The notes: generated by a model from the sequence alone, not told the origin. A DNA stretch of 64,000 nucleotides from Mustelus asterias (GCF_964213995.1 NC_135819.1:8618001-8682000), one strand, 5' to 3'; numbered from the stretch's first letter, positions 2,263 through 63,429 are shown. Translations and numbers: made by a program.

Positions 2263-2718
2263 GGGGTGACATCTGGCTGGCCTTGTCAGCGAGTGACTTG
2301 TCCAGGTAAGAGTGTGATGATGACTCACTGTGAGGCCTGCTGTGATGCTGTCCTGGTTCTGCCGAAGTCTGACTCCTGCCTGTCTTCTGACTGCAAATAG
2401 ATGCCTGTCCCATGTCTGCATGAGTCCAATGCTCTGGACCTAGGATAAGTGGGTGAGGAGGCTGCCATTTCAGGCCATGTGGGTCTCCATGGCCCTCATT
2501 GTTGGAATTGCTTGGGGGGACCGATAGGAGATGCTGAGTAGAGATGGGGTAAGGAACTCCCTGTGGGAAATGGATCAAAGAGGAGTTGCGGCTTTGAGGT
2601 GCAATATGCTTTAATGTTGCTTATTTACAATGCCAATAATCCTGCCTCTAACTATGGTGTCTGCCTTCACCCGTGTCCCTTAATCATCTTAATCTTATGT
2701 GGCCTGGCACTATGTGCC

Positions 2719-3053
2719 GGCACGGTAGCACAGTGGTTAGCACTGCTGCTTCACAGCTCCAGGGTCCCGGGTTCGATTCCCGGCTCGGGTCACTGTCTGT
2801 GTGGAGTTTGCACATTCTCCTCGTGTCTGCGTGGGTTTCCTCCGGGTGCTCCGGTTTCCTCCCACAGTCCAAAGATGTGCGGGTTAGGTTGATTGGCCAG
2901 GTTAAAAATTGCCCCTTAGAGTCCTGAGATGCGTAGGTTAGAGGGATTAGCGGGTAAAATATGTGGGGGTAGGGCCTGGGTGGGATTGTGGTCGGTGCAG
3001 ACTCGATGGGCCGAATGGCCTCCTTCTGCACTGTAGGGATTCTATGATTCTAT
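2719..3053 (+). mobile_element. V-SINE (HE1-like, tRNA-derived) with CR1-type tail
   Basis: Head with A box and B box GGTTCGATTCC, V-domain GTGTGGAGTTTGCACATTCTCC...CCGGTTTCCTCCCACAGTCCAAAG, tail ending in (ATTCTATG)n. Confidence 0.9.
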
Positions 3054-3149: not shown

Positions 3150-3748
3150 TTGCAGTGTGTCCTTGTCCACCAGTCACTGAAGGTAAGCATGCAGGTGCAG
3201 CAGGCGGTAAAGAAGGCAAGTGGTATGTTGGCCTTCATTCCGAGAGGTTTTGAGTACAGGATGTGTTGTTGCAAATATGCAGGGCCTTGGTGAGGCCACA
3301 CCTAGAGTATTGTGTGCAGTTTTGGTCTCCTTTTCTGAGGAAGGATGTTCTTGCTCTCGAGGGAGTGCAGCTGATTCCGGGGATGGCGGGACTGATGTAC
3401 GAGGAGAGATTGACTAGGTTAGGATTGTTTTCGCTGGAGTTCAGAGGAATGAGGGGGAATCTCATAGAGACTTGTAAAATTCTAACAGGACTAGGCAGGG
3501 TAGATGCAGGGGGGATGTTCCCGATGGTGGGGGTGTCCAGAACCAAGGGGTCACAGTCTGAGGATTCGGGGTAGACCATTTAGGATGGAGATGAGGAAAC
3601 ATTTCTTCACCCAAAGAGTGGTGAGCCTGTGGAATTCATTACCACAGGAAGTAGTTGATGTCAAAACGTTGAATGTATTCGAGAGGCGGCTGGATATAGC
3701 ACTTGGGGCGAACGGGATCAAAGGTTATGGGGAGAAAGCAGGATTAGG
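3150..3748 (+). mobile_element. CR1 LINE 3' fragment
   Basis: ORF2 C-terminal peptides LVRPHLEYCVQFWSP, LGLFSLE, FFTQRVVSLWNSLP. Confidence 0.9.
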
Positions 3749-12398: not shown

Positions 12399-12737
12399 AA
12401 GCACAGTGGTTAACACTGCTGCTTCACAGCTCCAGAGACCCCGTGTTCGATTCCCGGCTTGGGTCACTGCGGGGTGTGTGGAGTTTGCACATTCTCCTCG
12501 TGTTTGCGTGGGTTTCCTCCGGGTGCTCCGGTTTCCTCCCACAGTCCAAAGATGTGCGGGTTAGGTTGATTGGCCATGCTAAAATTGCCCCTTAGTGTCC
12601 TGAGATGCGTCGGTTAGAGGGATTAGCGGGTAAATATGTGGGGATATGGGGGTAGGGCCTGGGTGGGATTGTGGTCGGTGCAGACTCAATGGGCTGAATG
12701 GCCTCTTTCTGCACTGTAGAGTTTCTATGATTCTATG
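12399..12737 (+). mobile_element. V-SINE
   Basis: Close match to 2719-3053. Confidence 0.9.
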
Positions 12738-15519
12738 AAGAGGTGAGGCAAAGGAAATAAAAATTAGAGGTGAGGGAACAGGCCGAGAATATGAGTACCA
12801 AGAGAGTGAATGAACTAAAGGAAGGATTGGAGTGGGTAACAATGGAGGGATGGATTCAAATGGCTGCTACATTTATTTTACTAACACGCTGATAATTACC
12901 TGCCACTAAAGCTAGTATGTATCACATCCCCTAGTGAACTGATGAGAGGCATTGTTAGTGCTGTTTGTAATCCTCGATTGAAGAGCTCCTCCTCATGATT
13001 CATATTTCATGGTTCAGTATGGTGAATATTTTCAAGTCAAACACTTCTCTATCACCTACTATACAGTAACAGCTTCTTGTAAAGGAACACTCAGAGTAAT
13101 AAAGAATGTTCCTTTCACATTGTGTTGCATGGTGAGTGATTAAATGGGCCTAGACAAAAATATATAAATACAAGTCATCTGTGAAGTACTGATCCTAGCT
13201 GAACCTTTGAGAATGTCAAGTTGTGCTTGTCTTATTGAAATGTATAAGGCAAAGCTTTATTTGTCATTTCAAATATTATATATAATTTTTTCTCCCTTAG
13301 TTAGTGAGCGTGTTTCTTGGCATGGTATTTAAACAAAACAGCCAGCAAAGTTTCAGGTTTCATTTGTACATGTACTGAACCAATTAGTTTTGGGTGGGAT
13401 AATATTAAGAGCAATACAATTTGTCTTGGTATTCTCGGGATTCAAAAGAACAGAAGTCACTTAGATTGCTCCTAATCATTGTCCTTGGGTCCCTTCTGCT
13501 CTAAAATTTGGGCATCAGGTGTGGAAAGAATTGAAGTTGCCAAGATGTTCCTCCAAATGCAAGTAGTCTGCTGACACTGTCTAAACCTCCAAATAAAAGT
13601 GAACACGCAGGCTTGACATTTGGCACTTGACAAGAGCTTCCTTGGATCTTTACTCAGCATGAGTCAATGGGTGTACTCCACCTCTCTGCACTCAAAGTGC
13701 TCCTGCCAGTGGGGAACCCGGAGTGTTTCCTGCTGGTGTTAGCAGCACCTGTCAGATCAGATTCATCCACCTGATGGATGCAAATTTATGCATCGCAGAA
13801 ACCACGATGGCCAGCGCCAAATTTCTCAGCGATTGAGGCTCCATTTTTAAAGAGCGTCCTGATCTCAGCGTTTAGGGTCAGGCCCCTTTCCCCCCACAGC
13901 AAAAAAGGCAAATCCCCCCTCCCCCGATGACCAGGGGCACACTCCCAGCCCCTCAGTACAGAGGGGCACCCTTCACCCACCATTGAGAGAATGGGTCACC
14001 CCACCAACGCCATGTAGGCATGGGGGTGATCCAATCCCTTCTCCCACCCACCAGTCAAAGACTTTAATATAGGGTTCCCTCAGACCAACCCCCACCCCCT
14101 TAAGACTCCCCCTCCAGGACCCGTCCAGCCCCATTTCAGGTTAGAAAAGAGGAACTGAAAACACTTCGATGCTTTGACGTTGCCTGCAGTTGTCAACCAG
14201 AACAAGAATATTTATAAACATTGTGCCATTGTACAATGTGGGGAACTTCACATGCATCCAACCATGAAGAGAAAGATAAACAAACAAAGCTTCAGCATGC
14301 TGTGTAAAAACCATTTTAAGCTCTCAATCAAGCTGGTTAGGTGCATTGACCCGAACAGGCGCCGGATTGTGGTGACTAGGGAAATTTCACAGTGACTACA
14401 TTGCAGTGTTAATGTAATCCTTACTTGTGACTAGTAAATAAACTTTAAAAACTTTTTTTAAAGGTACTGGACCATGAAATTGAGTGAAAACAAAGGTTTT
14501 CAAAGGATTTCAAGGAATTTCAAAGTTTTTCAATGGCTTTGAGCTTTCTAGGGAGGCTCAGAGACTTGAAAAAATGCAGTGTTAAGTGAAAGGAGCTGAG
14601 TGAGCAGCTGCGGAGAAGGGAATACCGCCCCCCCCCACCCCCCCTCAGTGAAACTGACCTGTCAGTCAGAGAACTTCAAAGGGGTCTTTTCACACCTACA
14701 GCTTCTGAGAGCATGGGGAATTTCCTCTGCAGAATGGAGTGTTGCTGTGTCCAGGGCACATGGCGATTAATGACTAGGCCATTCAGATTTTTCACAGTAC
14801 ACAGACAAGAATGAAGATTTTGATCAGAGAGCAGTCTGAAATCACCATGCCAAGAGTGATCTTCAGGCTTGGCGGGGCTGGTGGTCTGCAGGTTGGGGCC
14901 CCCCACTGGACTGAGGCTCGTGTGACGAGTATTCCCACTGGCTGATGAGAGGCCCTCGAGGGACTGCCTATGATGCCAATTGCAAAGCCTGCTAATGTTG
15001 CACTGGTTACCCTGCTTGAAAGGCTCTGTGGTTTATTTTTGACATTCTATCTCAGGCCCCACTAACAGTTACAAGCACTAGGTATGGCCGTTGTTGCCTC
15101 AATCAAGAGAGTTTGTCAGCACAACTCTTCACACTGTATAAACTCTGAAATGCTTCCTACAATGATCACCATAATGTCTAATTGCATGCAAGCTAGGAGG
15201 ATTCTTCTTCCATCAAAACGGTATGCCATTCCTGGAGGGTAGATTGCACAAACATCCGGGTGGCTACACCCAGAAATCATACTGCAAATGTTCCCCAATG
15301 AGGACCTCTCACAGCCATGCTGATTGTCGACATGAGCACCACAAAGCTCAGTCCAAACTGCCACATGCTGCTGCAATGGCCAGGGGTTCCACGTTTTCCA
15401 TATCTGAGCGGGAGAGACTCCAGCACAAGCAGGCACGTTGTATGTCACTCAGAGAGGGAGAGAAATCAGGACAGACATCCTGAGGGCTGGGGAGGGAGTT
15501 AACATCTGACTTCCCGTCA

Positions 15520-19000: not shown

Positions 19001-19055
19001 CTACCCTATTTCCATCATCCCTTGCATTTACCATGGCTAATCTTTGGACACCTAA

Positions 19056-21323
19056 GGGCCCGATTTTAACATTTTCATTCTAAGTGCTGAATCTGGGCGC
19101 AATTCAGATCCGACTTGGAAATCTGCTTTCAGGTGGCCCTGCACTTAGCCTGAAAAAAAAATCGCGAGGCTGAATCGCACTGTGGGCGGGGCTTATCGCG
19201 GCTGAAACGATCGGAGCTCTGAACTGCGCATACGCAGTGAGAAAATAAAATTGAAAATCGCGCCGCAGTCACAAAAAGCGGGGCCGCAAAAAGCGGATAA
19301 AGCGGTCCGGGAGCGATGGCCCCCATAAGCATCACCCCCGCACCTACAACATTACTATCCCCCTTATCCACTCACCGCCCCCCCCCCCCGCTACCCAGAC
19401 CGATCGCGGCCCCCTCCCCACTTTTCCCCACCGATCGCCCACAGAGTGGCAGCGGACCCCCCCTCAGAGATACATCTGACCTGCCTCCTCCTCCCTCCCC
19501 CCCCCCCACTAGAGAATGATCAGGCCCGCCTTCCCCCCCCACTCCCCTCATCAGATGACAATCTGGCCCACCTCTGCCCTCTTCCCCCCCCGATCTGTCT
19601 CCCTTCACCCCCCCCCACCAGAGAGCGAACTGTCGTCCCCCCCCCCCATCCCCCCACCACCACCAGAGATACATCTGACCTGCCTCCTCACCCTCCCCAC
19701 CAGAGAATGATCAGGCGTCCCTTCTCCCCCCACCCCCCCACCCCACCAGAAAATGATCAGGCGTCCCTTCTCCCCCCACCCCCCACCCCACCAGAGAATG
19801 ATCAGGCTTGCCTCCCCCCCCCCCCCCCCCCCCTCCCCCTCAACACCAATCTGAATCAGAGAGCCGTTGGAAGCTCTGAACTTACCTCTTCAGCAGCTGG
19901 AGCGCTTGAAACAGATCTTGCCGAGCAGTTCTGTTTCGCGCCCAATCCGGACGTCCGAATGTGATGGTAAAGGGGGAAATAGAGTCATAGAGGTTTACAG
20001 CATGGAAACAGGCCCTTCGGCCCAACTTGTTCATGCCGCCCTTTTTTTTAAAAAACCCCTAAGCTAATCCCAATTGCCCGCATTTGGCCCATATCCCTCT
20101 ATACCCATCGTATTCATGTAACTATCTAAATGCTTTTTAAAAGACAAAATTGTACCCGCCTCTACTACTACCTCTGGCAGCTTGTTCCGGACACTCACTC
20201 TGTGTGAAACAATTGCCCCTCTGGACACTTTTGTATCTCTCCCCTCTCACCTTAAACCTATGCCCTCTAGTTTTAGACTCCCCTACCTTTGGGAAAAGAT
20301 ATTGACTATCGACCTTGTCTGTGCCCCTCATTATTTTATAGACCTCTATAAGATCACCCCTCAGCCTCCTACGCTCCAGAGAAAAAAGTCCCAGTCTATC
20401 CAGTCTCTCCTTATAACTCAATCCATCAAGTCCCGGTAGCATCCTAATAAATCTTTTCTGCACTCTTTCTAGTTTAATAATATCCTTTCTATAATAGGGT
20501 AACCAGAATTGCACATAGTATTCCAAGTGTGGCCTTACCAATGTCTTGTAAAACTTCAACAAGGCATTCCAACTCCTGTATTCAATGTTCTGACCGATGA
20601 AACCGAGCATGCCGAATGCCTTCTTCACCACTCTGTCCACCTGTGACTCCACTTTCAAGGAGCTATGAACATGTACCCCTAGATCTCTTTGTTCTGTAAC
20701 TCTCCCCAACGCTCTACCATTAACTGAGTAAGTCCTGCCCTGGTTGAATCTACCAAAATGCATCACCTCGCATTTGTCTAAATTAAACTCCATCTGCCAT
20801 TCATCAGCCCACTGGCCCAATTGATCAAGATCCCGTTGCAATTGGAGATAACTTTCTTCACTGTCCACTATGCCACCAATCTTAGTGTCATCTGCAAACT
20901 TACTAACCATGCCTCCTATATTCTCATCCAAATCATTAATATAAATGACAAATAACAGTGGACCCAGCGCTGATCCCTGAGGCACATCGCTGGTCACAGG
21001 CCTCCAGTTTGAAAAACACCTCTCTACAACCACCCTCTGGCTTCTGTCAAGAAGCCAATTTTGTATCCCTTTAGATACCTCACCCTGGATCCCGTGAGAT
21101 TTAACTGATGCTGATTAAGTTGGGCGGGCAGTTCATTAATTCAATTTAAATGCATGCAAATGCATTTAAATCGCTGTTGTGTCCATTTCGGGCGCGAATT
21201 GGATCGCGGCCATTTTCGGGCCTTGGTAAAGTGGGCATCTGCGCTGATGCGGGCGCAGATCGCGTTAATGGCCTCATGCCGACTACCATGTTTCGGGCGC
21301 GACGCAATGGCAAAATCGGGCCC
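19056..21323. mobile_element. Harbinger-type MITE copy A, interrupted by a CR1
   Basis: TIR GGGCCCGATTTT / AAAATCGGGCCC with 3-bp TSD TAA (19053-55 and 21324-26). It splits a minus-strand V-SINE. Confidence 0.85.
19981..21105 (-). mobile_element. Young CR1 LINE 3' part (RT C-terminal half)
   Basis: 298-aa ORF 20137-21033 with VPQGSALGPLLF, KFADDTK, LVRPHLEY. Confidence 0.93.
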
Positions 21324-21494
21324 TAAGTTGCAATTTAGCATGGTCAATCCATCTCATCTGCACATCTTTGGACTGTGGGAAGAAACTGGAGCACCTGGAG
21401 GAAATCCACACAGCCACCCAAGGCCAGAATCAAAACCAGGTCCCTGGCACTGTGAGGCAGCAGTGCTAACCACTGTGCCACCGTGCAGCCTCAA

Positions 21495-22190
21495 CCAATG
21501 GTGCTGTCAAAAAAGGCTTGGCAAGTTGCTGCTATGCATCTTACATATGGTACACAATGCTGCAACTGTGCATCGGTGATGAAGGGATTGAATGTTTAAA
21601 ATGGTGGATGGGATACAGATCAAGCAGGCTGTTTTGTTCTGGAAAGTGTTAACCTTCTTGCGTATTGGAGCTGCAAGCAGAGAGTATTCCATCACAGCCC
21701 TGACTTGTGCCTTGTAGATAGCTCTGGGGAGTCAAGAGGTGAGTTACTTGCCACAGAATTCCCAGCTTCGGACCTGCTCTTGTAGCCACAGTATTTATAT
21801 GGCTGACCCAGTTAAATTTCTGATCACTGGTAACCCACAGGCGGTTGATGGAAGGGGATTCGGTGATGGTAATGATGGTCAAGAGAAGATGGTTAGATTC
21901 TCTCTTGTTAGTGTTGGTCATTTCCTGGCACTTGTGTGGCTATAATGTTACTTGCCACTTATCAGGCCAAGCTTGAATGTTGTTTAAGTCTTGTTGCATT
22001 TGGTCTCAGACTGTTTGTATGTCTAAGAAGTTGTGAATAGTGCTGAACACTACTATCATCGGTGAACAACTCCACTTCTGACCTTAGGATGGAGGGAAGG
22101 TCATCGATAAAGCCTAGGACACAACCCTGAGGAACTTTTGTAATGATGTGTTGAGGCTGAGGTGAATGGCCTCCCAACAACCACAACCGC
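21495..22190 (-). mobile_element. CR1/L2-group LINE RT fragment (same family as 22993-27426)
   Basis: VPQGCVLG.FIDDLPSILRSEVELFTDD. Confidence 0.8.
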
Positions 22191-22508: not shown

Positions 22509-23362
22509 AACGTTGTGCTAGTACGACTCCAATCTATGGGGAGTTTTCCCCCACTTCCCATTGACTTTAATACCATGGTGCATGTTTAAGTACGCATGAC
22601 TCAGTCGATAACTTACGATACATGGTGATAATTTATTAGCACTGTATTTTTTTGTTTGCAACAATGATCTTTGCGAGACTTCCAACGAGTAACAATCTGT
22701 GGATACATTTCTGCTATATATTCATCTGAGCTAAGAATTGAATAGAAACTTCACATTTCACTTAGGATCCCTGACAGAGAAGAAGCTTTCATCCCATCAG
22801 CCAAGGCTAAATTTGAACCCAAATTCCATGGGGAAGATAACACTGTCATAATCTGCTTCCACTTATAAAAGCATTGTGCTTTTATAAAATCAGCATTCTG
22901 CCCATGAGTTTTAAATATATGCCGATATATAGCTCATATGGCTTAAATAGTGAAATGTATGGATATATGTGAGAATTGTATGTATGTGTATAGGGGGAGG
23001 TAATGGTGTACTGGCATTGTCACTGGATCAGTGATCAGTGACCCAAGTATTGCTCTGGGGATCCAGGATTGAATCCACTATGAATTTGAATTCAGTAAGA
23101 AGAAAATCTGGAATTAAAAGTCCAACGATGATGATGAAACCATTATCGATTGTTATTAAAAACCCATCTGGTTCACTAATGTCCTTTCGGAAGGAAATCT
23201 GCCATCCTTACCTGGAATGGCTTACATATGACTCTGTGACTCATTCCTTCAAAGGAATGAAACTGGATGGACCACTTATCATCAACCTAGGAACCAGAAC
23301 TGGAAACGACAATGGCAAGCTCAGCTTTGTCGACCCTACAAAGTCCTCCTTACTAACATATA

Positions 23363-24278
23363 GGGCCTGATTTTACCATCAAGTTGCGCCCGTTTCTGGG
23401 TGCGAAAACTTGGTAAAGTCGGGCATGAGGCAAGTAGCGCGATTCGCGACCACCTCTGCCCCCGTTCCCCCTTTACCAAACGCCTAAAATGGCCACGATA
23501 GGGACCGCACTCAAAACGCGCATGACGGCAATTTAAATGCTTTTGCATGCATTTAAATTGACTTAATGGGCTGGACGCCCAAACTTACTGGCACTTCCCC
23601 CTTTACCACCGCGTTCGCCCATCCAGATTCGGTGCGAAACAGACATGGTCTGCAAAGGTCCGATTTGGGTCAGATCAGTGATGGGGGAGGGGAAGGCAGG
23701 TCAGATCACTCTCTGGTGAGGGGGAGGAGGGAGGCTGGTCAGATGGCTCTCGTGGGGGGGGGAGGAGGGAGGCGGGTCAGATGGCTCTCTGGTGGGGTGG
23801 AGGGAGGTGGGTCAGATGGCTCTCTGGTGGGGGGGAGGAGGGACGCAGGTCAGATGGCTCTTTGGTGGGGGGGGGAGCAGGGGGTGTCCGCTGCCACTCT
23901 GCGTGCGATCGGTGGGGGGATGGGGGGCAGGGGGCCGCAATCGGTCTGGGTGGTGAGCGTGTGGGAGGGATAAGGGGATCATTAATGTTGTGAGGGTGGT
24001 GCAATGTCTGTGGGGGCCGGGGGAGGGTGGGGGGAGGCATTATCCGACCCGGGAGCGATTTTCTATTTTTTTTTATTACGCATGCACAGTTGGAGGCACT
24101 GATCGGAGCTGCAGTGTTTCGGGCGCGATAAGCCCCACCCACAGGCTTCTGCAGCGCGATTCAAAATCACTACTTTTTTTCAGACTGCATATGGAGGTGC
24201 CTGAGAATGGGTCTAAAAGTCGGATCTGAAACACTCCCAGATTCAGCACTTAGAATCAAAATGGTAAAATCGGGGCCC
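23363..24278. mobile_element. Harbinger-type MITE copy B, inverted relative to A
   Basis: TIR GGGCCTGATTTTACCAT / ATGGTAAAATCGGGGCCC and an internal G-rich minisatellite. Confidence 0.85.
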
Positions 24279-25765
24279 TAATCATAGAATCCCTACAGTG
24301 CAGAAGAAGACCATTTGGCCCATCATGTCTGCATCAACTCTCCAACAAAGCACCTTATCCAGTCCCAAAATCTGTACTCCTCCATGTTGAACATCACTTG
24401 CAGGAAGCACTGAGGGTGGAAAGGGTGCAGAATGTACTCTGAGTGGGGGACTTCAATGTCCATTACCAAGATTGGCTCGGTAGCACTACTACTGACTGAG
24501 TTGATCATGTCCTAAAGGACATAGCTGCTAATTTGGGACAGTGCCAGGTGGTGAGGGAACCAACAAGAGGGAAAAACATATTTGACTTCATCCTCAGCAA
24601 CCTGCCTGCACAGATGCATCTGTCCATGACAGTATCAGTAGGAGTGACCACTGCACAGCCCTTGTGAATATAAAGTCCCGTGTTGAGGATGCCTTCCATC
24701 TTGTTGTATGGCACTACCACTGTGCTAAATGGGATATATTTCAAACAGATCTCACAACTCAAGCCTGGGCAGCCATTAGGCACAGTGGGCCACCAGCAGC
24801 AGCAGATAGTACTCAATCACAATCTGTAACCTTGTGGCCCTACCTACCATTACCACCAAGGCAGGGGATCAACCATGGTTCATTGAAGAGTGCAGGAGGG
24901 CACACCAGGAGCAGCACCAGGAGCAGCACCAGGCACACCTAAAAATGAAGTGTAAACCTGGTGAAACTACACCATAGGACTACTTGCATGCCAAATAGTA
25001 TAAGCAGCAAGTGATAGACAGAGCTAAGCAATTCCACAACCAAGGGATCAGACCTAAACTCTGCAGTCCTGCCACATTCGGCCATGCATAGTGGTGGACA
25101 ATTTAAAAACTTATTGTTGGAGGAGATTCCACAAATATCCCCATCTTCAATGATGGGGGTGCCCAGCACATCAGTGCAAAACTTGCAACATTATGGGTAT
25201 GGGCCATGGGCCCTGACAATATTGCGACAAGAGTACTGAAGACCTGTGCTATACTTGCCGTGTCCCTAGCTTAGCTGTTCAGTACAGCTGTAACACTGGC
25301 ATCTACCCAGCAATATGGAAAATTGCCCAGGTATGTGCTTTATGTAAAAAGCAGGACAAATCCAACCCAGTCAATCAGTTTACTCTCATTCATCAGTAAA
25401 GTAATAGAAGGGGCCATTGACAGTGCTATCAAGCGGCACTTGCTCAGCAATAACCTGCTCATTTATGCTCAATTTGTGTTCCGCCAGTGCCACTCAGTTT
25501 CTGACCTCATCACAGCCTTGGTTCAAACATGGACAAAAGAGCTTTACTCTAGAGGTGAGGTGAGAGTGACTGCCCTTAACGTCAAGGCTACATTTGACCA
25601 AGTATGGCAGCAAGGCACCCTAGCAAAACTGGAGTCACTGGGAATCAGGGGAAATCTTTTTGCTGGTTGGAGTCATGCCCAGCACAAAGGAAGATGGTTG
25701 TAGTTGTTGGAGGTCAATCATCTCAGCTCCACGACATCACTGCAGGAGTTTTTCCAGGTAGTGTC

Positions 25766-26061
25766 TGTGGTGAACCATCGTTGGTTCACCACTGGGGGTT
25801 GTTATTATGTTACTGTTGGGCTAGGGTGTTGTTACTGTGGGGGTTGTACAATGTTGTTGGGTTAGGGTGTTTACCTGTTATAAGTGTTATCATGGCACAT
25901 TCCAGTGGGGTCCCGCCTCCGGTGGCGAGGTATAAGACCCTCTGCTCCGGCAGGACCCCTTCAGTCTGAACTGGTGTATTCGTGTTAGTAGTTCCATTGT
26001 TACACAATAAAAGCCTTCAATATCGAAGCCTTGGTTCCACGTGCTTAATTGTCGCGCATCA
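25766..26061 (+). mobile_element. Solo LTR (296 bp)
   Basis: TG...CA termini, perfect 5-bp TSD GTGTC (25761-65 and 26062-66), TATAA at 25931, AATAAA at 26006. Confidence 0.85.
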
Positions 26062-26499
26062 GTGTCCTTGGCCTAACCAGCTACAGCTGCTTCATCAATG
26101 ATCTGCCCTCCATTTTAAGGTCAGAAGTCAGGATGTTTGCACAATGTTCAGCACCATTCACGATTCCTCAGATACTGAAGCAGTCCGTGTCCAAAAGCAG
26201 CAAGACCTGCACAATATCCAGGCCTGGTCTGACAAGTGGCAAGTAACATTCATGCCATACATATAGCAGGCAGTAACTATTTCCAACAAGAGGGAATCTA
26301 ACATTGCAGCTTGACAGTCAATGGCATTATCATTGCTGAATCCCTCACTATCAACATCCTGGGGGTTACCTTTGACCAGAAACTGAACTGGACCAGCCAT
26401 ATAACTACTGTGACTTCGAGAGCAGGTCAGAGCCTAGGAACCCATCTCGTGACTCCCCAAAGCCTGTCCAACATCTAAAGGCACAAATCAGGAGTGTAA

Positions 26500-26976
26500 T
26501 AGAAACATTGGAACTAAAAGCAGGTATAGGCCATTTGGCCCTTCAAGCCTGCTCGGCCATTCATTGTGATCATGACTGATCATCAAATTCAATATCCTGA
26601 TCCCCCCTTCCCCCATATCCCTTGATCCCTTTAGCCCCAAGAGCTATATCTAATTTCTTCTTGAAATCAGATACTATTTTGGACTCAACGACTTTCTGTG
26701 GTAGTGAATTCCACACATTCACCACTCTCTGGGTGAAGACATTTCTAAAGGGTTTACCCCTTATCCTTAAACTATGACTCCTAGTTCTGGATTCCCCCAC
26801 TATCGGGAACAGTCTTTCTCACTGTCTAATCCTGTTAGAATTTTGTAAATTTCTTTGAGATCCCCTCTCATTCTTTTAAACTCCAGTGAATATAACCTAA
26901 CCGACTTAGTCTCTCCTCATGTGACAGTCCTGCCATCCCAGGAATCAACCTGGTAAACCTTCGCTGTACTCCCTCT
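26500..26976 (-). mobile_element. CR1 LINE 3' fragment nested in the LINE
   Basis: IEGVQRRFTRLIPGMAGL, FTQRVVNVWNSLP. Confidence 0.85.
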
Positions 26977-27947
26977 ATAGTTCCAACAACACTCAAGAAG
27001 CTAGACATCATCCAGGACAAACCAGCCTGCTTAATTGGCACCCCATCCACAAACATTCACTCCCTTTATCACCACTGCATAGTAGCAGCAGTGCATACCA
27101 TCTACAAGATGCACTGCAGAAACTCACAAAGGCTTTTTAGGCAGCACTTTCCAAACCCATACTATCATTTAGAAGGACAAAGGCAGCAGATACGTGGGAA
27201 CACCACCACTTGAAAGTTCTCCTCCAAACCGCAAATCATCCTGACTTGGTTCTATGTTCCTTCACTGCTGCTGGGTCAAAATCCTGGAATTCCCTCCTTA
27301 ACAGCACTGTAGACGTACCTACAGGAGATGGACTGCAACTCACCACACCTTCTCAAGGACAATTAGGGATGGGCAATAAATGCCAGCCTAGGCAGTGATG
27401 CTCATATCCCTTGAATGAATAAAAAGAATGTATATATATATGTGTGTTTGTCTGTATTTATACATTATTGAATGATTGGTGGATTGATGACTAAACAGAA
27501 AACTAAACAGTCACCTGTGCATTGACAAGGTACCAGCCAACTTTGTGCTGTCAATATAACTGAGAGAAGTAATGGGAAACTCTGTTCACAGTGATTTTAT
27601 TGACAGTTAAATTGAAGACGTTGTCTATTTATCATTAAATATTTGAAAGAACTAAACTTAATACTTTTTTCTGTCCTCTACTGTTCATTCATTGCTTTCA
27701 TGCCAAAGTTGACTTTGGATAAGTTTGCCTCCTTATGAATTTTATTTCAGAACCGTTGCTGGTTATGAAGCATTCATGCAAAATCTTTCTCAGGACATTA
27801 AATGGGAGGTGTGAATCTTTAATGGGGCGGATTTCAACTGCATTATAGAAGGAGGTGACCAAATGGATTGACTAGCCTTTTGCGTCTTATTTTCTTAACT
27901 TTAAAATGGATTCTGGAAATTGAGAAGTTCTGTATCTGTGAATTAAT

Positions 27948-28710
27948 GATGTGGAGATGCCGGCGTTGGACTGGGATAAACACAGTAAGAAGTCTCACAA
28001 CACCAGGTTAAAGTCCAACAGGTTTATTTGGTAGCAAAAGCCACTAGCTTTCGGAGCGCTGCTCCTTCATCAGGTGAGTGGGATTTCAGTTCACAAACAG
28101 GGCAAATAAAGACACAAACTCAATTTACAAAATTGAGGCGTGGTACATTGGGGAGACCATGCAGACGCCTACGACAACAGATGAATGAACACCGCTCGAC
28201 AATCACCAGGCAAGAGTGTTCTCTTCCTGTTGGGGAACACATCAGTGGTCACGGACATTCGGCCTCTGATCTTCGGGTAAGCGTTCTCCAAGGCGGCCTT
28301 CACGACACAGGACAGCGCAGAGTCGCTGAGCAGAGACTGATAGCCAAGTTCCGCACACATGAGGACGGCCTCAACCGGGATCTTGGGTTCATGTCATACT
28401 ATCTGTAACCCCCATGACTTGCCTGGGCTTGCAAAATCTCACTAACTGTCCTGGCTGGAGACAATACACATCTCTTTAACCTGTGCTTAACCCTCTCTCC
28501 ACGCACATTGTCTGTACCTTTAAGAGTTGATTACCTGTAAAGACTCGCATTCCAACCATTATTTTGTAAATTGAGTTTGTGTCTTTATATGCCCTGTTTG
28601 TGAACTGAAATCCCACTCACCTGACGAAGGGGCAGCGCTCCGAAAGCTAGTGGCTTTTGCTACCAAATAAACCTGTTGGACTTTAACCTGGTGTTGTGAG
28701 ACTTCTTACT
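27948..28710 (+). mobile_element. Penelope-like element: GIY-YIG C-terminus flanked by inverted pseudo-LTRs
   Basis: Peptide WYIG..LRQQMNEHRSTI...PVGEH...EQRLIAKFRTHEDGLNRD. ~150-bp inverted arms at 27984-28133 and 28561-28710. TSD GTGAATTAA (27938-46 and 28713-21). Confidence 0.88.
28618..28652 (+). ncRNA. Minimal type I hammerhead ribozyme-like motif in the Penelope pLTR
   Basis: CAC-CUGACGA-A-GGGGC(agc)GCUCC-GAAA-GC-UA-GUG. An inverted copy lies at 28042-28076. Hammerheads are known in Penelope pLTRs. Confidence 0.6.
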
Positions 28711-28980: not shown

Positions 28981-29292
28981 TAGAATCATAGAATCCCTTC
29001 ATTGTAGAAGGAGGCTATTCAGCCCATCGAGTCTGCACCTACTCTCCGACAGAGCATCCCACCCAGATCTTATCCCCGTAACCACATATATTTTACCCCT
29101 CTAATCCCCCTAGCCTACACATCTTGGGCACTAAGTGGCAATTTAGCATGGCCAATCCACCTTACCTGTGGGGGAAAACTGGAGCACCCGGAGGAAGCCC
29201 ATGCAGACACGGGGAGAACGTGCACAGCCACCCAAGGCTAGAATTGAACCCAGGTTCCTGGTGCTGTGAGGTAGCTATGCTAACTACTATGC
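28981..29292 (-). mobile_element. Diverged V-SINE inside an old CR1 fragment (~28805-29800)
   Basis: Reverse complement of V-SINE head, V-domain and tail. Confidence 0.75.
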
Positions 29293-29304: not shown

Positions 29305-29452
29305 CGTAAGAAGTTTAACAACACCAGGTTAAAGTCCAACAGGTTTATTTGGTAGCAAAAGCCACTAGCTTTTGGAACAGGCTGTTCCTTCGTCAGGTGA
29401 GTGGGAGTTCTGATCACAAACAGGGCACAAAGACACCAACTCATCTCCACAT
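29305..29452 (-). mobile_element. Short Penelope pLTR insertion
   Basis: Matches 27985-28122 and has a 12-bp TSD CTGAAGGAACTT (29293-304 and 29453-464). Confidence 0.85.
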
Positions 29453-34500: not shown

Positions 34501-35136
34501 AAGATTCAATTGGTCACTACAGTGTTTATGCTCCACACAAGCCTCCTCCTGCCCCTCTTAATCTAATCCTAAAAATTTAGCCTTCTATTCCTTTCTCCCT
34601 CATGTGTTAATCTATCTTCCCCTTAAATGCATCTATGTTATATGCTCAACCCCTCCATGTAGTATCAATTTCTATAACCTTATCACCCTGAGCAAAGAAG
34701 CTTCTCTTGAACTCCCTATTGGATTTATTGGTGGCGCTTGTAGTTGTGGCTCCTAGTTTTGGACACGCCTACAAATAGAACCATCTCTTCTATGTCTGTC
34801 TTGCCTCCTTCATAACATTAACGACCTCTGCTGGGTACTTGAAATATATTGCCGTTCCTTCACTGTCACTGTGGGCCAAAATCCTGGAACTCTCTCTCTA
34901 ACAGCACTGTGGGTGTACCTACACCACATGAGCTGCAGAGGTTCAAGGAGCAGCTCACCCCCCACCTCCCGATGGGCAATATATGCTGGCCTAGCCCGCG
35001 ACATGTACATCCCCATGAATGATGAAGAAAAAAACCCTTGTGTATCAATTGATCACAGAGTTATTGCTAAATTCTGTAATTTCAGAATCATGCAGCACAG
35101 AAAGAGGCTATTCAACCCACTGTTCCTGTGACAGCT

Positions 35137-36563: not shown

Positions 36564-36925
36564 CGGTAGCACAGTGGGCGGCACGGTAGCACAGGGGGTG
36601 GCACGGTAGCACAGTGGTTAGCACTGCTGCTTCACAGCTCCAGGGTCCCGGGTTCGATTCCCGGCTTGGGTCACTGTCTGTGTGGAGTTTGCACATTCTC
36701 CTCGTGTTTGCGTGGGTTTCCTCCGGGTGCTCCGGTTTCCTCCCACAGTCCAAAGATGTGCGGGTTAGGTTGATTGGCCAGGTTAAAATTGCCCCTGAGA
36801 TGTGTTGGTTAGAGGGATTAGCGGGTAAATATGTGGGGGTAGGGCCTGGGTGGGATTGTGGTCGGTGCAGACTCGATGGGCCGAATGGCCTCCTTCTGCA
36901 CTGTAGGGTTTCTATGATTTCTATG
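36564..36925 (+). mobile_element. V-SINE with a repeated 5' end
   Basis: CGGTAGCACAG occurs three times before the normal body. Confidence 0.9.
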
Positions 36926-37134
36926 AACCACCTAACTATTCTAATCCCATTTCCCAGCACTTGACCCATTGCCTTGTGTGTCCCGGCATCACAAATGCAC
37001 ATTTGGTCATGAGGGTCTCTGCCTTTGCCACCCTTTCAGACAGTGAGTTTTAGACTCCCACCACTCTGGGTCAAAATGCTTTTCCTCACAACTCCTCTAA
37101 ACCTCCTGCCCCTTGCCTTAATCTATGTCCCCTG

Positions 37135-37700
37135 TTTTTATTCATTTGTGGGACATGGGCGTCACTGGCTGGCCAGCATTTATTGATGTGGAGATGCCGG
37201 CGTTGGACTGGGGTAAGCACAGTAAGAAGTCTCTCAACACCAGGTTAAAGTCCAACAGGTTTATTTGGTAGCAAATACCATAAGCTTTCGGAGCAATGCT
37301 CCTTCGTCAGATCTGACGAAGGAGCATTGCTCCGAAAGCTTATGGTATTTGCTACCAAATAAACCTGTTGGACTTTAACCTGGTGTTGTGAGACTTCTTA
37401 CAGCATTTATTGCCCAGCCCTAGTTGGCCTTTTTCAGAGGACAGTTGAGAGTCAACCACATTGCTGTAGCTCTGGAGCCATATGTAGGCCAGACTGAATA
37501 AGGACAGCAGATTTCCTTTCCTAAAGGACATTAATGAACCAGATGGGTTTTTACAACAATCGACAATGGCTACATGGTCATCAGTAGATTCTTAATTCCA
37601 GACATCTTTTATTGAATTCAAGTTCAACCACCTGCCATGGTGGGATTTGATACGTCTCAGTCATACCAGGAGACGTTCTGGTACAGTGGTAGCATCCTAA
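37135..37700 (-). mobile_element. tRNA-headed SINE (head and tail shared with LINE 22993-27426), interrupted by a Penelope insertion
   Basis: Reverse complement contains AAACCCATCTGGTTCATTAATGTCCTTTAGGAAAGGAAATCTGC and the tail GGGCAATAAATGCTGGCC. Confidence 0.75.
37186..37400. mobile_element. Penelope pLTR pair forming a spacerless palindrome
   Basis: Arms 37222-37311 and 37312-37401 with one mismatch. TSD CAGCATTTATTG (37174-85 and 37401-12). Confidence 0.88.
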
Positions 37701-37984: not shown

Positions 37985-38285
37985 TTAGAATGTTAGAATC
38001 TTAGAAACCCTACAGCACAGAATGAGGCCATTCGGCCCATCGAGTCTGCGCCGACCACAATCCCACCCAGGCCCTACCCCCATATCCCTACATATTTACC
38101 CACTAATCCCTCTAACCTACGCATCCCAGGATACTAAGGGCAATTTTAGCATGGCCAATCAACCTAACCCGCACATCTTTGGACTGTGGGAGGAAACCGG
38201 AGCACCCGGAGGAAACCCACGCAGATACGAGGAGAATGTGCAAACTCCACACAGACAGTGACCCAAGCCAGGAATCGAACCCAGG
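37985..38285 (-). mobile_element. V-SINE (5'-truncated) amid old CR1 fragments
   Basis: Reverse complement of V-domain and tail. Confidence 0.85.
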
Positions 38286-40122
38286 TCTATTCAATCTCTC
38301 TTTGTTGCTAAAACTCTCCAGCCCAGGCAACATCCTGGTAAATCTCCTCTGCACCCTTTCCAGTGCTATCTCATCCCTCCTATAATGTAAACTCCAGAAC
38401 TGCAGTCAATACTCTAGCAGTAGTCTAACCCAAGATTTTATATAGTTTCTAGTTATCAATCCTATGATCAATGGAAACAGTTTCTCCCTATCTTCTCTTA
38501 TCAAAGCCCTTTATAATTTTGAGCATTTACTAAATCTCCCCATAACCTTCTTTGTTCTAAAGAGAAGCAGCTTCCCCATCTCCTCCTAACTGGTCCCTCT
38601 TGTCTGCTGCCATTCTAATAAATTTCATCTGTATTCTTTCAAGTCTTTCACATTCTTCTTGTAGTGTGGTTCACAGAATTGGATGTAATGCTCCAGCTGA
38701 GGCCTAACCAGTAATTTATAAACTTTTGCTTTTGTACTCTATACCTTTATTTATAAAAACCTAGAATCCTGTATGCCTTTTTAACATAATTATCAACTTG
38801 TCTTAATCTTTAAATTATAATTACAACAATCAGAGATGGGGAGTTCTCCTGACACCCTGCAGGTGTGCTGAGTATTGTCAGTGTATTCCTGTTCTCTTGC
38901 AGCCTGACCCCTTTTTTAGTGTTATAGGATAAATGTGGAGTAATAATAGACAAAATGAGACTATGGACCAATTTTATCTAGAGATATTGAGTTGATAGGA
39001 CTGTCGAAAAGGGATTGTTTTTTTTCTATCTGTGATTATCTCATTAAAAGCCCCACAAATTCATCATTCCTGTTGTCCACTGACTCCCAATCCCCTGATG
39101 TATCTATTTCAAAATCCTCATCCTCTTCAAATTTCTACAGCACCATGGTTAACTCTACCTCGGCAATTATCTCTGATTCACAACACTGATCTTCTTTCTT
39201 CAAACCCTGATTCACTGTCCATCTCAATCCTCTGCATTCTGCAATTTTCTGCCTATTCCTTTTCTGCAACTTGCCTGTCCTTAGAACCTACCTCTTCAAG
39301 TATGCCTTTGGTCACCTTCCCTTTTTTTTGGTTACTCATTCATGTGATTTGAGCATTGCTGACAAGGCCACTATTTATTGCCCATCCCTAATGGCCCTTG
39401 AGAAGGTGGTAATGAGCCTATTTCCTGACCACTCTGCATGTAAAGCATGTCGAGGAACATTTTGTAACATGAAAGGCTCTACGTAAGTGGAGTGATATGA
39501 TAGATGTTCCCAGTGTGCTGAACCTCTCCACATGTAGTGTGGCAGTGCTTTGAGTAATTTGGTCTATTTTATGTATACAGTTTAGAGTTCAGAGCTCTAT
39601 CATGATTATTGAAACTGCTAGTCTGATTATCAATTTTTCATCTTAGTCTTATACTGTATTAATTTAACAATCCCAAAGTATCCTCCCTTGCAGATCTCCC
39701 CTTGGTGTCATTCTGTCCAGGTAGGTACTGAGCCACTTGAAATGGGATGGCCCCAGGTTTTGATATCTGTTAGTGGGCTACTCTATGTGGAGGGTAACCC
39801 TGCTCAGCCTGATAATGTTCAAAATCCACAAATGTTTATGCACCATTCATGGTTTGGATCAGTAAACAGAAATTAGGGCAGCAGCTATGGTTGTCTTACT
39901 CCCTGGCTTGCATAAGTTGAAATCAGTTAACATAGAACAGGTCAGAAAATGAACCTGGGACTTTCCAGATTTCAGTGTCTTGGATGCATGAACACAGATA
40001 TACTATTAAATTAACTACACACAGACATGTTTGATAAAGCAAGAGGTGAGAATTGTACCTGGAGAAGGAAGTGAACCGGGGGAAAAAAAAATACTTGCAA
40101 TCTAAATAAAATCAGATGTTAT

Positions 40123-40486: not shown

Positions 40487-40846
40487 ATCATAGAAACATA
40501 GAATCATAGAAACCCTACAGTGCAGAAGGAGGCCATTCGGCCCATCGAGTCTGCACCGACCACAATTCCACCCAGGCCCTACCCCTACCCCACCCCCACA
40601 TATTTACCCTCTAATCCCGCTAACCTACGCATCTCAGGACTCTAAGGGGCAATTTTTAACCTGGCCAATCAACCTAACCCGCACATCTTTGGACTGTGGG
40701 AGGAAACCGGAGCACCCGGAGGAAACCCACGCAGACACGAGGAGAATTTGCAAACTCCACACAGACAGTGACCCGAGCCGGGAATCGAACCCGGGACCCT
40801 GGAGCTGTGAAGCAGCAGTGCTAACCACTGTGCTACCGTGCCGCCC
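40487..40846 (-). mobile_element. V-SINE
   Basis: Near-identical reverse complement of 2719-3053. Confidence 0.92.
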
Positions 40847-41809: not shown

Positions 41810-42590
41810 CTTTTTTATTCTTTCACGGGACGTGGACATTGTTGACGAGGCCAGCATTTATTGTCTATCCTAATTGCCTTTGAGAAAGTGGTGGTGAGCT
41901 GCTGCAATTAATGTGTAGGTACACCCACAGTACTGTTAGGGAGAGTTCCAGGAATTTGACCCAGTGTCAGTGAATATATTGCTGTTCCAAGTCAGGATGG
42001 TGTGTGGCTTAGAGTGGAATTTGCAGGTGGTGGTGTTCCTATGCATCTGCTGCTTTGTGCTTCTAGATGGTAGTAGTCACAGATTTGGAAGATGGTGTCA
42101 AAGGAAACTTGGTAAGTTGCTGCTGTGTATCTTGTAGATGGCACACATTGCTGCCACTATGCATCAGTGACGGAGGGAGTGAATTTTTAAGGTGGTGGAT
42201 GGGGTGCCAATCAATGCAGGCTACTTTGTCCTGGATAGTGTCAAGCTTCTTGAGAGTTGTTGAGCTGAACTCATCCAAATAAGTGGAGAGTATTCCATCA
42301 CACTCCTGACTCATGGTGGACAGGCTTTGGGAGTAAGATGAGTTCTCCGCAAGTATTTACAGGCGCTGAACTGCTTTTCTAGCCACAGTATTTATATGGC
42401 TGGTCCAGTTCAGTTTCTGATCAATGGTAACCCCCAGGACGTTGATAGTAGGGGATTCAGTGATGGTTCTGCCATTAAATGTCCAGGGGAGATAGTTGGA
42501 TTCTAAACTGTTGGAGATGGTCATTGCTTGGCATGAATGTCACTTTCAGGCTAAGTCTTCATTTTGTTCCGGTCTTGCTGCATATGGACA
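41810..42590 (-). mobile_element. 3' fragment of the CR1/L2-group LINE family of 22993-27426
   Basis: TTLKKLDTIQDK.AC peptide and the shared 3' tail. Confidence 0.8.
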
Positions 42591-42817
42591 TGGCCTGCTT
42601 CAGCCCATTTCTTCATTGTCACTAGGTCAAAATTCTGGAATTTCCTATCTAACAGCAATACTGGGTGTACCTTTCTGTTTGCACCCACATTCTATGAATG
42701 AATAAATAAAAGAAAGTATAGAGAAATGGAATGCCCAGGATGTTCGAATCGGAAGAACAGTGGATAGGAGCTGGAATAGGTTACAAACATTGGGTGGAGT
42801 GGGACCATGAGGATTAT

Positions 42818-48450: not shown

Positions 48451-48804
48451 GGATATGGCGTTCCTGGCTGGGCCAGCATTTATTTCCCATCATTAATTGC
48501 CCTTGAACTGAGTAGCATACTAGGCCATTCGGAGGGCATTCAAGAGTCAACCACATTGCTGTGGATCTGGAGTCACGTAAGCCAGACTAGGTAAGGATGG
48601 CAGACTTCCTTCCCTTAAAGACATTAGTATTCAGATGGGCTTATGACAATCGCCAATGGTTTCATGTTCATCAGTAGACTTTTTATTCCAGATTTTTTTA
48701 TTGAATTCAAATTTCTCCATCTGCCGTGGTAGAATTCAAACCCAGGTCCCCAGCAGATTACCCTGGATTACTAGTCCAGTGATAATAACACTACACCACT
48801 GCCT
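48451..48804 (-). mobile_element. Near-complete tRNA-headed SINE sharing head and tail with LINE 22993-27426
   Basis: Reverse complement AGGCAGTGGTGTAGTG...GGTTTGAATTC...CTAATGTCTTTAAGGGAAGGAAGTCTGCCATCCTTACCT...CAAGGGCAATTAATGATGGGAAATAAATGCTGGCC. Confidence 0.8.
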
Positions 48805-50151: not shown

Positions 50152-50486
50152 ATCATAGAAATCATAGAAACCCTACAGTACAGAAAGAGGCCATTCGGCC
50201 CATCGAGTCTGCACCGACCACAATCCCACCCAGGCCCTACCCCCATATATTTTACCCACTACTCCCTCTAACCTACACATCTCAGGGGCAATTTTAAGCA
50301 TGGCCAATCAACCTAACCCGCACATCTTTGGAATGTGGGAGGAAACCAGAGCACCCGGAGGAAACCCACGCAGACACGAGGAGAATGTGCAAACTCCACA
50401 CAGACAGTGACCCAAGCCGGGAATCGAACCCAGGTCCCTGGAGCTGTGAAGCAGCAGTGCTAACCACTGTGCTACCGTGCCGCCCC
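50152..50486 (-). mobile_element. V-SINE
   Basis: Reverse complement of the V-SINE sequence seen elsewhere in the window. Confidence 0.92.
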
Positions 50487-52253: not shown

Positions 52254-52919
52254 GGGCCCGAGTTTTACCATTTTGATTCTAAGTGCTGGGCGGACTTGAA
52301 TCTGGGAGTGTTTCAGATCCGACTTTTAGGCTTATTCTCCGGCGCCCCTATATGTACTCTGCCTGAAAATAAGATTCCGAATCACGCTGCAGAGCCTCTG
52401 GATGGGGCTTATTGCGCCCAAAACACTGCAGCTCCAATCAGAGCCTTCAACTGCGCATGCGCAGTAAAGAAAGTAGAAAAATGCTCGCCTGCCCCCACGG
52501 ACATTGTCCCACCCCCACGACATTACTGCCCCCCTTATCCCCCCTACCACCCAGACCGATTACCCCCCCCCCCCAGATCTGAGTCAGAGAGCCACTGGAA
52601 GCTCTGAACTTACCTCCTCAGAAGCTGGAACGTCCAAATCGGACCTTTGCGGACCATGTCTGTTTCGTGCCGAATCATGATGGGCGAATGCAGTGGTAAA
52701 AGAGGAAGTGCTGGCAAAGTTGGGTGTCCAGCCCACTAATTCAATTTAAATGTATTTAAATTGCCATCACGCCAGTTTTGGGTGCGGTCCCGATCACGAC
52801 CATTTTAGGCCTTTGGTAAAGGGGGAACGGCCGCGGAGGCGGTCGCAGATCGCACTACTCGCCTCACGCCTGACTTTACCAAGTTTTCGCGCCCGAAAAT
52901 GGGCGATAAAATAAGGCCC
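52254..52919. mobile_element. Harbinger-type MITE copy C
   Basis: TIR GGGCCCGAGTTTTACC / GATAAAATAAGGCCC, TSD TCT, colinear with copy A but lacking most of the minisatellite. Confidence 0.85.
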
Positions 52920-54881: not shown

Positions 54882-55221
54882 AGGCGGCACGGTAGCACAG
54901 TGGTTAGCACTGCTGCTTCACAGCTCCAGGGACCTGGGTTCGATTCCCGGCTTGGGTCACTGTCTGTGTGGAGTTTGCACATTCTCCTCGTGTCTACGTG
55001 GGTTTCCTCCGGGTACTCCGGTTTCCTCCCACAGTCCAAAGATGTGCGCGTTAGGTTGATTGGCCAGGTTAAAAATTGCCCCTTAGAGTCCTGAGATGCG
55101 TAGGTTAGAGGGATTAGCGGGTAAATATGTGGGGGTAGGGCCTGGGTGGGATTGTGGTCGGTGCAGACTCAATGGGCCGAATGGCCTCCTTCTGCACTGT
55201 AGGGATTCTATGACTTCTATG
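54882..55221 (+). mobile_element. V-SINE inserted in the Gypsy integrase
   Basis: Full V-SINE interrupting the frame just after RSAPYHSAMNRLAEHF. Confidence 0.92.
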
Positions 55222-56034
55222 AAATGTTCTGCTAGTCTATTCATAGCAGAATGGTACGGTGCAGACCTAACAACATGTTGAAGACCATTCTCTTTCAATA
55301 AACTTTCGAATTCTTGGGAGGCAAATTGAGGTTCTTTGTTGCTTACCAATTGCTTGGGGAATCCAAACCTACTAAACACTTCTAACTTATCAATCATCAT
55401 TTCTGATGAAGTTGACTTCATTGTGGTGACTTCTGGTGATTTTGAATGAGCATCCACCATGATTAATAAAAACATATGTCCTTCAAAGGTCCTGCAAGTC
55501 AGCATGCACCCATTGGCCATTCCCAAGCCTCCTTTGGCCATTCCCAAGGATTCAGCTGTGCTAACAGTGGCAGGTTCCATACCTTCACACATGAAGAACA
55601 AGTTCCAGCTGTCTCTTCAATTTCCACATCCACTCTAGGCCACCAGAAATTACTGGTTGCTATTTCTTTCATGTGCACAATTCCACAATGGCCCTTGTGC
55701 AATTTGTCTAACACTTATCTTCTCAATGGTGGTGCAGTGATCAATATGAGCTCTCGAAGAAGACAGCCTGACTATACAGCCCCAGTCTTCTAGTGTAGTA
55801 CAATTTCAAGTCAGGTTTTAGTTCTGAGGTCTTGCCTCGTAGTACCATATCCATTACTTTGGGGAGTACCAGGTTGCTCCTAATGCACTTCTTCATTTGT
55901 CCTGAAGTGACAGGCATACTGTCGATCTGTTCAAAGTAGAAAATACTTTTGTTCGAGTAATTTGACTAACTACTTGCTGATTCGTGATGCAGAGCAATGC
56001 CAACAGCCTGGGTTTAATTCCTGTGCCGGTTGAG

Positions 56035-62085: not shown

Positions 62086-62420
62086 GGGCGGCACGGTAGC
62101 ACAGTGGTTAGCACTGCTGCTTCACAGCTCCAGGGGCCTGGGTTCGATTCCCGGCTCGGGTCACTGTCTGTGTGGAGTTTGCACATTCTCCTCGTGTCTG
62201 CGTGGGTTTCCTCCGGGTGCTCTGGTTTCCTCCCACAGTCCAAAGATGTGCGGGTTAGGTTGATTGGCCATGCTAAAATTGCCCCTTCGTGTCCTGGGAT
62301 GCGTAGATTAGAGGGATTGGTTGGTGAAATATGTAGGGATAGGGGGGTAGGGCCTGGGTGGGATTGTGGTCTGTGCAGACTCGATGGGCCGAATGGCCTC
62401 TTTCTGTACTGTAGGGTTTC
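62086..62420 (+). mobile_element. V-SINE
   Basis: Head, V-domain and CR1-type tail. Confidence 0.92.
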
Positions 62421-63429
62421 TCTTTCTCTGAACATGCTCCATTATCTCACACAAATCAATTATTCCAGCAAATTCAATATTTGTTTTTGATATATTAGTA
62501 TTCGTAGAATGTGTTCTAAACCTGAAAGGTTACCATGAATATTGGACTGTGATAGATTTGGCAGTAGTAGGATGCAGATTGCACTTCCTGTATTATTAAA
62601 AGGAAGAATAAAAAGGACTTGTATATTCAGTAAGGTACGAGATGTTTCTGTTCCTGCACTTGTAATTGGGTATGGTTTCACAATTGGTGGATGCCTGGGA
62701 ACAAGTTGTCTTGTATCAATCAGGAATGATGCCTGATGCAGGGAGATGCAATAAATCAGAAGTTGCATTAAAATATATTATTAGGTGTCCTGCTTGTGAA
62801 AAATCTTGGTCTATGGAATCATGCAGGTAGTCCAAAAATCCCTGACTCTGATTTTCTACATATTGAGCAGTCAAGAACAGACTCTTCCTTCAGAAGGTGA
62901 GAGCAAGTCACATATAAGTTGTATATAATTCTGCCCTTTATTCAGTCTAAAATGACAAGTTGCCTACAAATGTCCACAAATGTGGCGGGTGTAGAAAATG
63001 CTGAATTATCCACTGATGGAATAGGAGGCCCTTGAGGCACATAATTGGAACAGAGAAGTTTTGCTATGAGTTTACTTGTAGTATATTTGTCCTGAGGCAT
63101 TGGATACTGATCCATTCCCTGCATAAATATCACTTGTGGTGAACACACAATGATTTGTTTATATATAAATTAGTGTAAGGGACTGAAAATCTGCAATATG
63201 TGTACTGTTGTTTTTGCCTCACAATACAAGAAACTAAACATAGATAAAGTTTGGTAGATAATGTAATTAATATGAATAAGTACAGCTATAAACATGCACT
63301 GAAATTCAAACAATTTATTTTAAATTAGATTTAAGGACTGTTAGCAGCACATGCTTTTTATCTGGGAAAGCAAGTTGCAAAATAATGGATTGACATCACT
63401 CCTCTTAATCAGCACATAATTCAGTCCTC

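Follow-up and report, generated by a model that had tools for sequence, protein, structure and literature searches.

A shark Zenon LINE with a tRNA-like head and SINEs built from its two ends is probably transcribed by RNA polymerase III

The window, a 64,000-nt stretch of Mustelus asterias DNA (NC_135819.1:8618001-8682000), contains at 22993-27428 a dead, decayed copy of a 3.29-kb LINE of the Zenon family, with endonuclease and reverse transcriptase (RT) in a single ORF; it is a member of an abundant elasmobranch family (Table 1). A sequence-only reading had taken 22993-27426 as one unit, which was right for a LINE with both ends but not for its length, since the 4.4-kb span is inflated by four nested insertions of together about 1.8 kb, one MITE-like, one solo-LTR-like, one the reversed tail of a repeat and one a 3' fragment of CR1. 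Inspection of the sequence finds the A-box-like TGGTGTACTGG, the B-box-like GGATTGAATCC, KVLLTNI and the A-rich end near 27426 where that reading had them, with both boxes decayed. The identity of the copy to the family's old consensus is 80-85%. A deletion of about 90 nt spanning the junction of core and leader brings endonuclease motif I to 347 nt from its start, compared with nt 426-429 in the consensus; the earlier figure of about 350 bp thus holds for the window copy and not for the family. Some 300 nt of the endonuclease region are absent where the MITE-like insertion sits, relatives of which occur in the window at 52254-52905, 21116-21325 and 19053-19650. The longest stretch of LINE body (85% to the old consensus) carries stops and frameshifts, and an RVT_1 match at 25275-25700. 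For the solo-LTR-like insertion, a second copy was not found among the fetched loci.

Table 1 Features of the Zenon LINE copy and of the two related SINEs in the window
Position	Strand	Feature	Basis or remark
22993..23085	+	tRNA-like LINE head with A box (23004-23014) and B box (23066-23076), both decayed	Sharp family 5' boundary
23086..23234	+	5' UTR core common to the SINEs; next ~90 nt of consensus deleted	Self-BLAST, consensus alignment
23250..23360	+	Basic leader running into motif I of the endonuclease (KVLLTNI 23340-23360); ATG out of frame	
23361..24280	.	MITE-like nested insertion, terminal inverted repeats (23363 to 24278), flanked by TA	
24280..24368	-	Reversed tail of another SINE/CR1-type repeat, nested	Matches 36866-36919, 40502-40555, 28984-29056
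24369..25765	+	LINE body from the late endonuclease into RT, matching consensus 760-1580 and 1745-2324	
25766..26061	.	Solo-LTR-like nested insertion in RT (TG...CA, 5-bp duplication GTGTC)	Observed only
26062..26504	+	LINE body, RT; consensus 2319-2789	
26505..26978	-	3' fragment of a canonical CR1-type LINE, nested	
26979..27428	+	LINE C-terminus and A-tailed 3' end; SINE tail = last ~75 nt	
37135..37650	-	SINE with junction B (LINE nt 77-295 fused to nt 3222 and following); markers of the young type	
48451..48804	-	SINE with junction A (LINE nt 5-317 fused to nt 3220 and following); markers of the old type	

To place this copy in its family, we searched the 3.68-Gb genome with the leader only, which gave 681 candidates, of which 40 were scored and 30 fetched. 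Sequence of the head or core lies upstream in 29/29 other loci, contiguously in 28 and split by an insertion in one. A second, independent query from inside the endonuclease yielded 29 other loci, 15 of which are one truncated copy duplicated on C8; the other 14 comprise six with the head, seven truncated copies, with no common same-strand sequence upstream, and one running off the locus. Neither an alternative 5' end nor an ORF1, either of which would have refuted the sequence-only reading, was seen among the copies from both queries, and the published elasmobranch consensuses begin with this head. The lack of an ORF1 noted in the window extends to the consensus, where the frames upstream of motif I (nt 426-429) are at most 46 codons long. 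In the family alignment conservation begins abruptly at the G run of the head, and exact matches to the LINE-type junction 18-mers number 1,120. Head markers co-vary with similarity in the downstream leader (15 head sites, 33 young and 11 old copies). Given this shared boundary and the 15 co-varying sites, the head is an integral part of the mobile unit.

The young consensus, built from 22 of 39 younger loci that were chosen for having both ends and whose query contained 80 nt of core, is 3.29 kb long with one frame of 979 codons. Copies give Pfam Exo_endo_phos and RVT_1 matches above the cut-off, with both domains in one ORF, and finish in a short A run. No intact ORF was present among the fetched loci, where the longest frame has 362 codons. 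Between the masters, the ORF shows 94 synonymous vs 59 non-synonymous codon changes, which points to purifying selection. In a sample of 264 kb (20 arbitrary 10-kb stretches and the window), coverage climbs from about 1 near the 5' part of the ORF to 12 at the 3' end, a gradient like that of 5'-truncating LINEs, and the family with its SINEs occupies 17.5 kb. The possible target-site duplication (TSD) that had been taken to bracket the window copy did not hold up: it is of low complexity, and in the 24 of 39 loci with both ends, 21 are without a duplication of at least 6 nt and three have one of 6 nt, while shuffled pairings gave a 6-nt match in 7/133. Because the family rate is near the control rate, the TSD in the window is no evidence of unity, and we rejected it as proof, 21/24 full-length copies being without one.

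The suggestion that the family might already be described proved right, as its consensus stands as Zenon in the supplement of Stuart et al. 2026 (PMC13343379). All seven elasmobranch consensuses there, from five species (CarCar_Zenon-1, RhiTyp_Zenon-1, ScyCan_Zenon-1, HypSab_Zenon-1 and SquAca_Zenon-1/2/3), start with the same head in their first 400 nt. By eye these 400 nt, those of the CarCar and RhiTyp entries included, are nearly identical to our old and young consensuses; five of the seven are 3.24-3.31 kb long, against 3.29 kb here. The main text of that paper describes Zenons without ORF1 and with A tails, as in the window family. It contains no mention of tRNA or polymerase III, and it gives no description of the tRNA-like head, the depletion of terminators, the lack of an opening AUG or the SINEs derived from the LINE. 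The family and its lack of ORF1 are therefore already known, whereas the head is printed as sequence and is undiscussed in that text. The Zenons of hagfish and coelacanth, compared over their first 400 nt, begin differently, with 5' ends that contain T runs. Homologous proteins (62-84% identity) were named from Heptranchias, Mobula, Heterodontus and Cetorhinus, and in an RT tree of 34 rows, from which named Zenon RTs are absent, the element falls in a 98/97 clade apart from the co-resident canonical CR1.

The A/B-box-like character of the head stands at the level of the family, where ARAGORN called six better-preserved heads from the fetched loci as tRNAs with a long variable arm, but not for the window copy, as ARAGORN made no tRNA call anywhere in the window. 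Rfam gave no tRNA match in two decayed heads, that of the window included. The old-consensus head aligns with genomic tRNA-Ser(AGA), the only tRNA compared, with a score of 38 (at most 30 in 500 shuffles); the young-consensus head is barely above its shuffles and the window head is not above them. As candidates for the identity of the core, SacSINE1/Deu (Deu of EbuSINE2 and SINE2-2_CM), MetaSINE (bivalve Meta sequences) and UCON3 were rejected, since the sequences compared show no resemblance to the core by eye.

Both SINEs of the window map entirely to the two ends of the LINE, its first ~317 and last ~75 nt, and carry the same young and old subfamily markers as the LINE. The common core claimed for them is borne out by self-BLAST (23081-23234 pairs with 37475-37626 and 48577-48713 at 80%), and the 3' tail of the window LINE aligns with both SINE tails, as had also been noticed; the SINE at 37135..37650 is broken by a palindromic insertion at 37222-37401. 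The genome gave 5,685 exact core matches, and the first 30 comprise one LINE and 29 short forms, of which 14 have junction A, nine junction B, two a third type and three a unique junction, with one interrupted. The unique forms retain LINE-only sequence, and one of them (L168) is joined at a 6-nt microhomology. Heads of young SINEs differ from those of young LINEs at 7 sites and from those of old LINEs at 26; old SINE heads are nearer old LINEs (14 vs 20 differing sites), and LINEs and SINEs are told apart by two weak sites only. Of the 39 young long copies, four have large internal deletions, and a fifth locus proved to hold an adjacent short form.

These data support the proposal that the SINE is an internal-deletion derivative of the LINE. 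The 5' part of the SINE stops exactly where the LINE tail starts, which a deletion explains automatically, whereas capture of the head by the LINE needs a coincidence; an extinct donor SINE could still have been the source of the head. Junction A, which is common to old and young forms and present in other organisms' runs, may have been passed on by exchange instead of arising anew by deletion. Splicing was rejected as the origin of junctions A and B, there being no AG before the 3' breakpoint in the consensus. The architecture, with a head on a coding LINE and SINEs made from its ends, is established.

The sequence-only reading had further proposed that a SINE-type promoter drives the LINE. 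TTTT (T4) and TVTTT are the shortest working terminators in human cells (PMC8466645), and we applied this set to the shark element on the assumption that sharks use it likewise. The sense strand of both consensuses has 0 T4 and 0 TVTTT, compared with 42 and 40 such sites on the antisense strand. Shuffling of synonymous codons gave, for T4 or TVTTT in the ORF, 0 vs 4.2 expected (P 0.006) and, for runs of T3 or more, 3 vs 12.1 expected (P 0.0002); T4 alone is not significant (P 0.088), which counts against transcription by Pol III. At the fetched loci, 96 frames of the family, not independent because they descend from few masters, contain 7 T4 runs in 50.3 kb with 49.3 expected, and 54 co-resident CR1-like frames contain 179 in 41.1 kb with 187 expected, a 30-fold gap (0.14 vs 4.35 T4 runs/kb). 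A first scan of metagenomes found nothing. Of 80 metagenome loci, 61 have a testable frame; none of these 61 related ORFs is free of T4 runs or preceded by an A/B-box pattern, and L230, the nearest of them, has 20 T4 runs. A few headless relatives show mild T-run deficits (L233, T4, P 0.015; L239, P 0.02; L266, T3 38 vs 50), and these also count against Pol III.

At the 3' end, an AATAAA is conserved ~45 nt before the A tail, and both also fit Pol II. Runs of T3 or more follow 16/45 ends vs 5/38 internal A runs (P 0.024); ageing A tails undergo T elongation (PMC8466645), and for this reason the terminal T run is not counted as a built-in terminator. According to Kojima 2024 (PMC10886601), non-LTR elements use Pol II and the length of an element is limited by Pol III processivity, both of which speak against Pol III here. 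The terminator depletion now backs the promoter type, indirectly but strongly, and as the best-supported reading we infer that the coding LINE is on balance likely to be transcribed end to end by Pol III from the internal A/B-box promoter.

Upstream of motif I the young and old consensuses carry 11 and 13 ATGs, respectively, none of which opens the ORF. Only one of them is in frame, and its reading ends after 15-16 codons; within the ORF, motif I stands at codon 46, whereas no Met occurs before codon 182. The absence of an opening AUG would fit an uncapped RNA and internal initiation, for which R2 elements are a precedent; an alternative start route would be a shift from an overlapping upstream frame of 36-46 codons. 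In the published SquAca_Zenon-2 a leader ATG is in frame, by eye, within the first 400 nt.

Three other explanations were weighed. That a SINE and a 5'-truncated ordinary LINE merely lie side by side or nested would agree with a window copy devoid of a credible TSD and of the exact junction, but the same junction occurs in 1,120 exact matches and in the consensuses of five species, assembled contigs bridge it in runs X2, X7 and X11, and head or core sequence stands upstream in 29/29 loci, so that chance adjacency is refuted and we give it practically no weight. It is less easy to dismiss, though in our view rather unlikely, that the RNA of the autonomous element is a Pol II product, started at a promoter within or overlapping the head and core or arising by read-through from flanking genes, with the A/B boxes kept for the short derivatives or as a TFIIIC site and T runs avoided for another cause. 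Published accounts treat LINEs as Pol II units (PMC10886601, PMC5786205), protein is ordinarily made from capped RNA, and the A tail, the AATAAA near the 3' end and the non-significant T4 count all suit Pol II. This explanation, however, accounts neither for the 0 vs 40-42 terminator-like sites between strands nor for the 30-fold T4 gap to co-resident CR1, and the 11-13 upstream ATGs, with an AATAAA at nt 114, are ill-suited to scanning of a capped RNA.

The two polymerases could also share the work, with Pol III making the full-length RNA that is reverse-transcribed and capped Pol II or read-through transcripts providing the protein in trans, the long element being SINE-like and carrying a gene. 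Such dual use would cover both the terminator depletion and the difficulty of translating uncapped RNA, and the surplus of short over long forms (4,234 vs 1,120 junction matches) makes trans action evident. Purifying selection on the ORF would, however, be easier to keep if the copied RNA were also the translated one, and an in-frame AUG would still be missing from a capped RNA; we consider dual use improbable.

If the LINE is indeed a Pol III unit, TFIIIC would bind the A/B boxes of its head and Pol III would read the 3.3 kb and continue into the DNA beyond. Translation of this uncapped RNA would start internally at a non-AUG codon, or else come about by frameshifting from the short frame that overlaps the ORF. 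The LINE protein would recognize the stem-loop at the 3' end, and its copies would be inserted by target-primed reverse transcription, most of them 5'-truncated and without clear TSDs. Internal deletions that keep promoter and tail would yield ready-made SINEs. The whole proposal, of an autonomous coding vertebrate LINE that is transcribed by Pol III, translated without cap or AUG, kept across sharks and rays and turned into SINEs by a single internal deletion, seems to us somewhat likelier true than false.

In reviews, LINEs are coding Pol II elements and SINEs non-coding Pol III elements, with long autonomous elements placed beyond Pol III. A coding element of 3.3 kb from which Pol III terminators have been purged would contradict this rule and would be a natural case of a Pol III transcript yielding protein. 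A direct route from LINE to SINE is shown, and a SINE body in the 5' UTR of a LINE bears on the open question of SINE-body origin (PMC5786205). Among the papers listed by our literature searches, no title or abstract describes a Pol III-transcribed LINE; Repbase, Dfam and Nishihara 2006, outside that search, may bear on novelty.

The closest known systems are the bipartite non-autonomous LINEs and SINEs (Bov-A/Bov-tA, RTE, Vingi; Kojima 2018, PMC5786205), short elements that likewise combine the 5' end of an autonomous LINE with its 3' end, and for which the sources listed there are RTE, Ingi, Vingi and R2 only. In those the tRNA head is added after the deletion, whereas here it is already on a CR1-group LINE, so that one deletion yields a complete SINE. 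RTE-1_DAn and relatives (PMC5786205) and the crocodilian Tx1 LINEs with U1/U2 5' ends (PMC4758252) are, as described, similar in being LINEs with small-RNA-like sequence, but belong to different clades, and Pol III transcription of a LINE is not claimed in what these papers say of them. SacSINE1, found in sharks, and other Deu-SINEs (PMC5499810), as well as MetaSINEs (PMC4824008), are tRNA-headed like the short forms here; SacSINE1, of up to 463 bp, has the L2-type tail of Deu-SINEs, whereas our short forms have that of their own LINE. The TRIMp3 elements Cassandra, Helenus and Ajax (PMC10886601) are non-SINE retroelements with a small-RNA-derived Pol III promoter, as we propose for Zenon, but they are non-coding LTR elements of 0.3-1.3 kb, whereas the Zenon LINE has 3.3 kb and encodes an RT.

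ARAGORN labels tRNA-like heads of the Zenon family as tRNA-Thr, -Ile or -Ala, both at locus L310 (2457-2551) and at five further fetched loci (L131, L174, L202, L226 and L228, whose heads were identified via the ARAGORN record number). Zenon-family heads will inflate the tRNA counts of shark genomes. About 50 tRNA-Ser motif matches were also observed within 1.89-2.30 Mb of contig C71 of the M. asterias genome, many of them spaced by ~2.9 kb; this cluster is a tandem tRNA gene array.

Besides the copy under study, the window holds four Zenon fragments, each 5'-truncated, as well as a second, young tRNA-headed SINE family, with at least eight copies of ~340 bp and 88-97% identity in a self-BLAST of the window, which resembles the shark HE1/V-SINE type. 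The palindromic short repeats of the window recur in many fetched Zenon copies and adjoin a 139-codon frame; a Pfam search of this frame gave no match, and it resembles the GIY-YIG end found in Penelope-like elements.

Features in the window and on contig C8
Feature	Location	Basis
5'-truncated Zenon fragments	21500-22188, 34837-35032, 39324-39417, 41811-42603	
Second SINE family	2718-3053, 12400-12739, 36597-36927, 37994-38287, 40497-40846, 50153-50486, 54883-55223, 62086-62432	Window self-comparison
Palindromic short repeats	27943-28710, 29306-29443, 37222-37401	Self-comparison
139-codon frame	27989-28408	
Truncated Zenon insertion, C8	L122-L129, L133-L136, L143, L145, L146	

A single truncated Zenon insertion is present in at least 15 copies at about 50.3-51.1 Mb of contig C8 of the same genome, which suggests that this region is a large gene array, either segmental or tandem.

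In the published consensus SquAca_Zenon-2, as read by eye in the PMC13343379 supplement, a deletion in the leader brings an otherwise out-of-frame ATG into the endonuclease frame. The leader ATG of a single copy, L091, is likewise in frame with the endonuclease, as in SquAca_Zenon-2.
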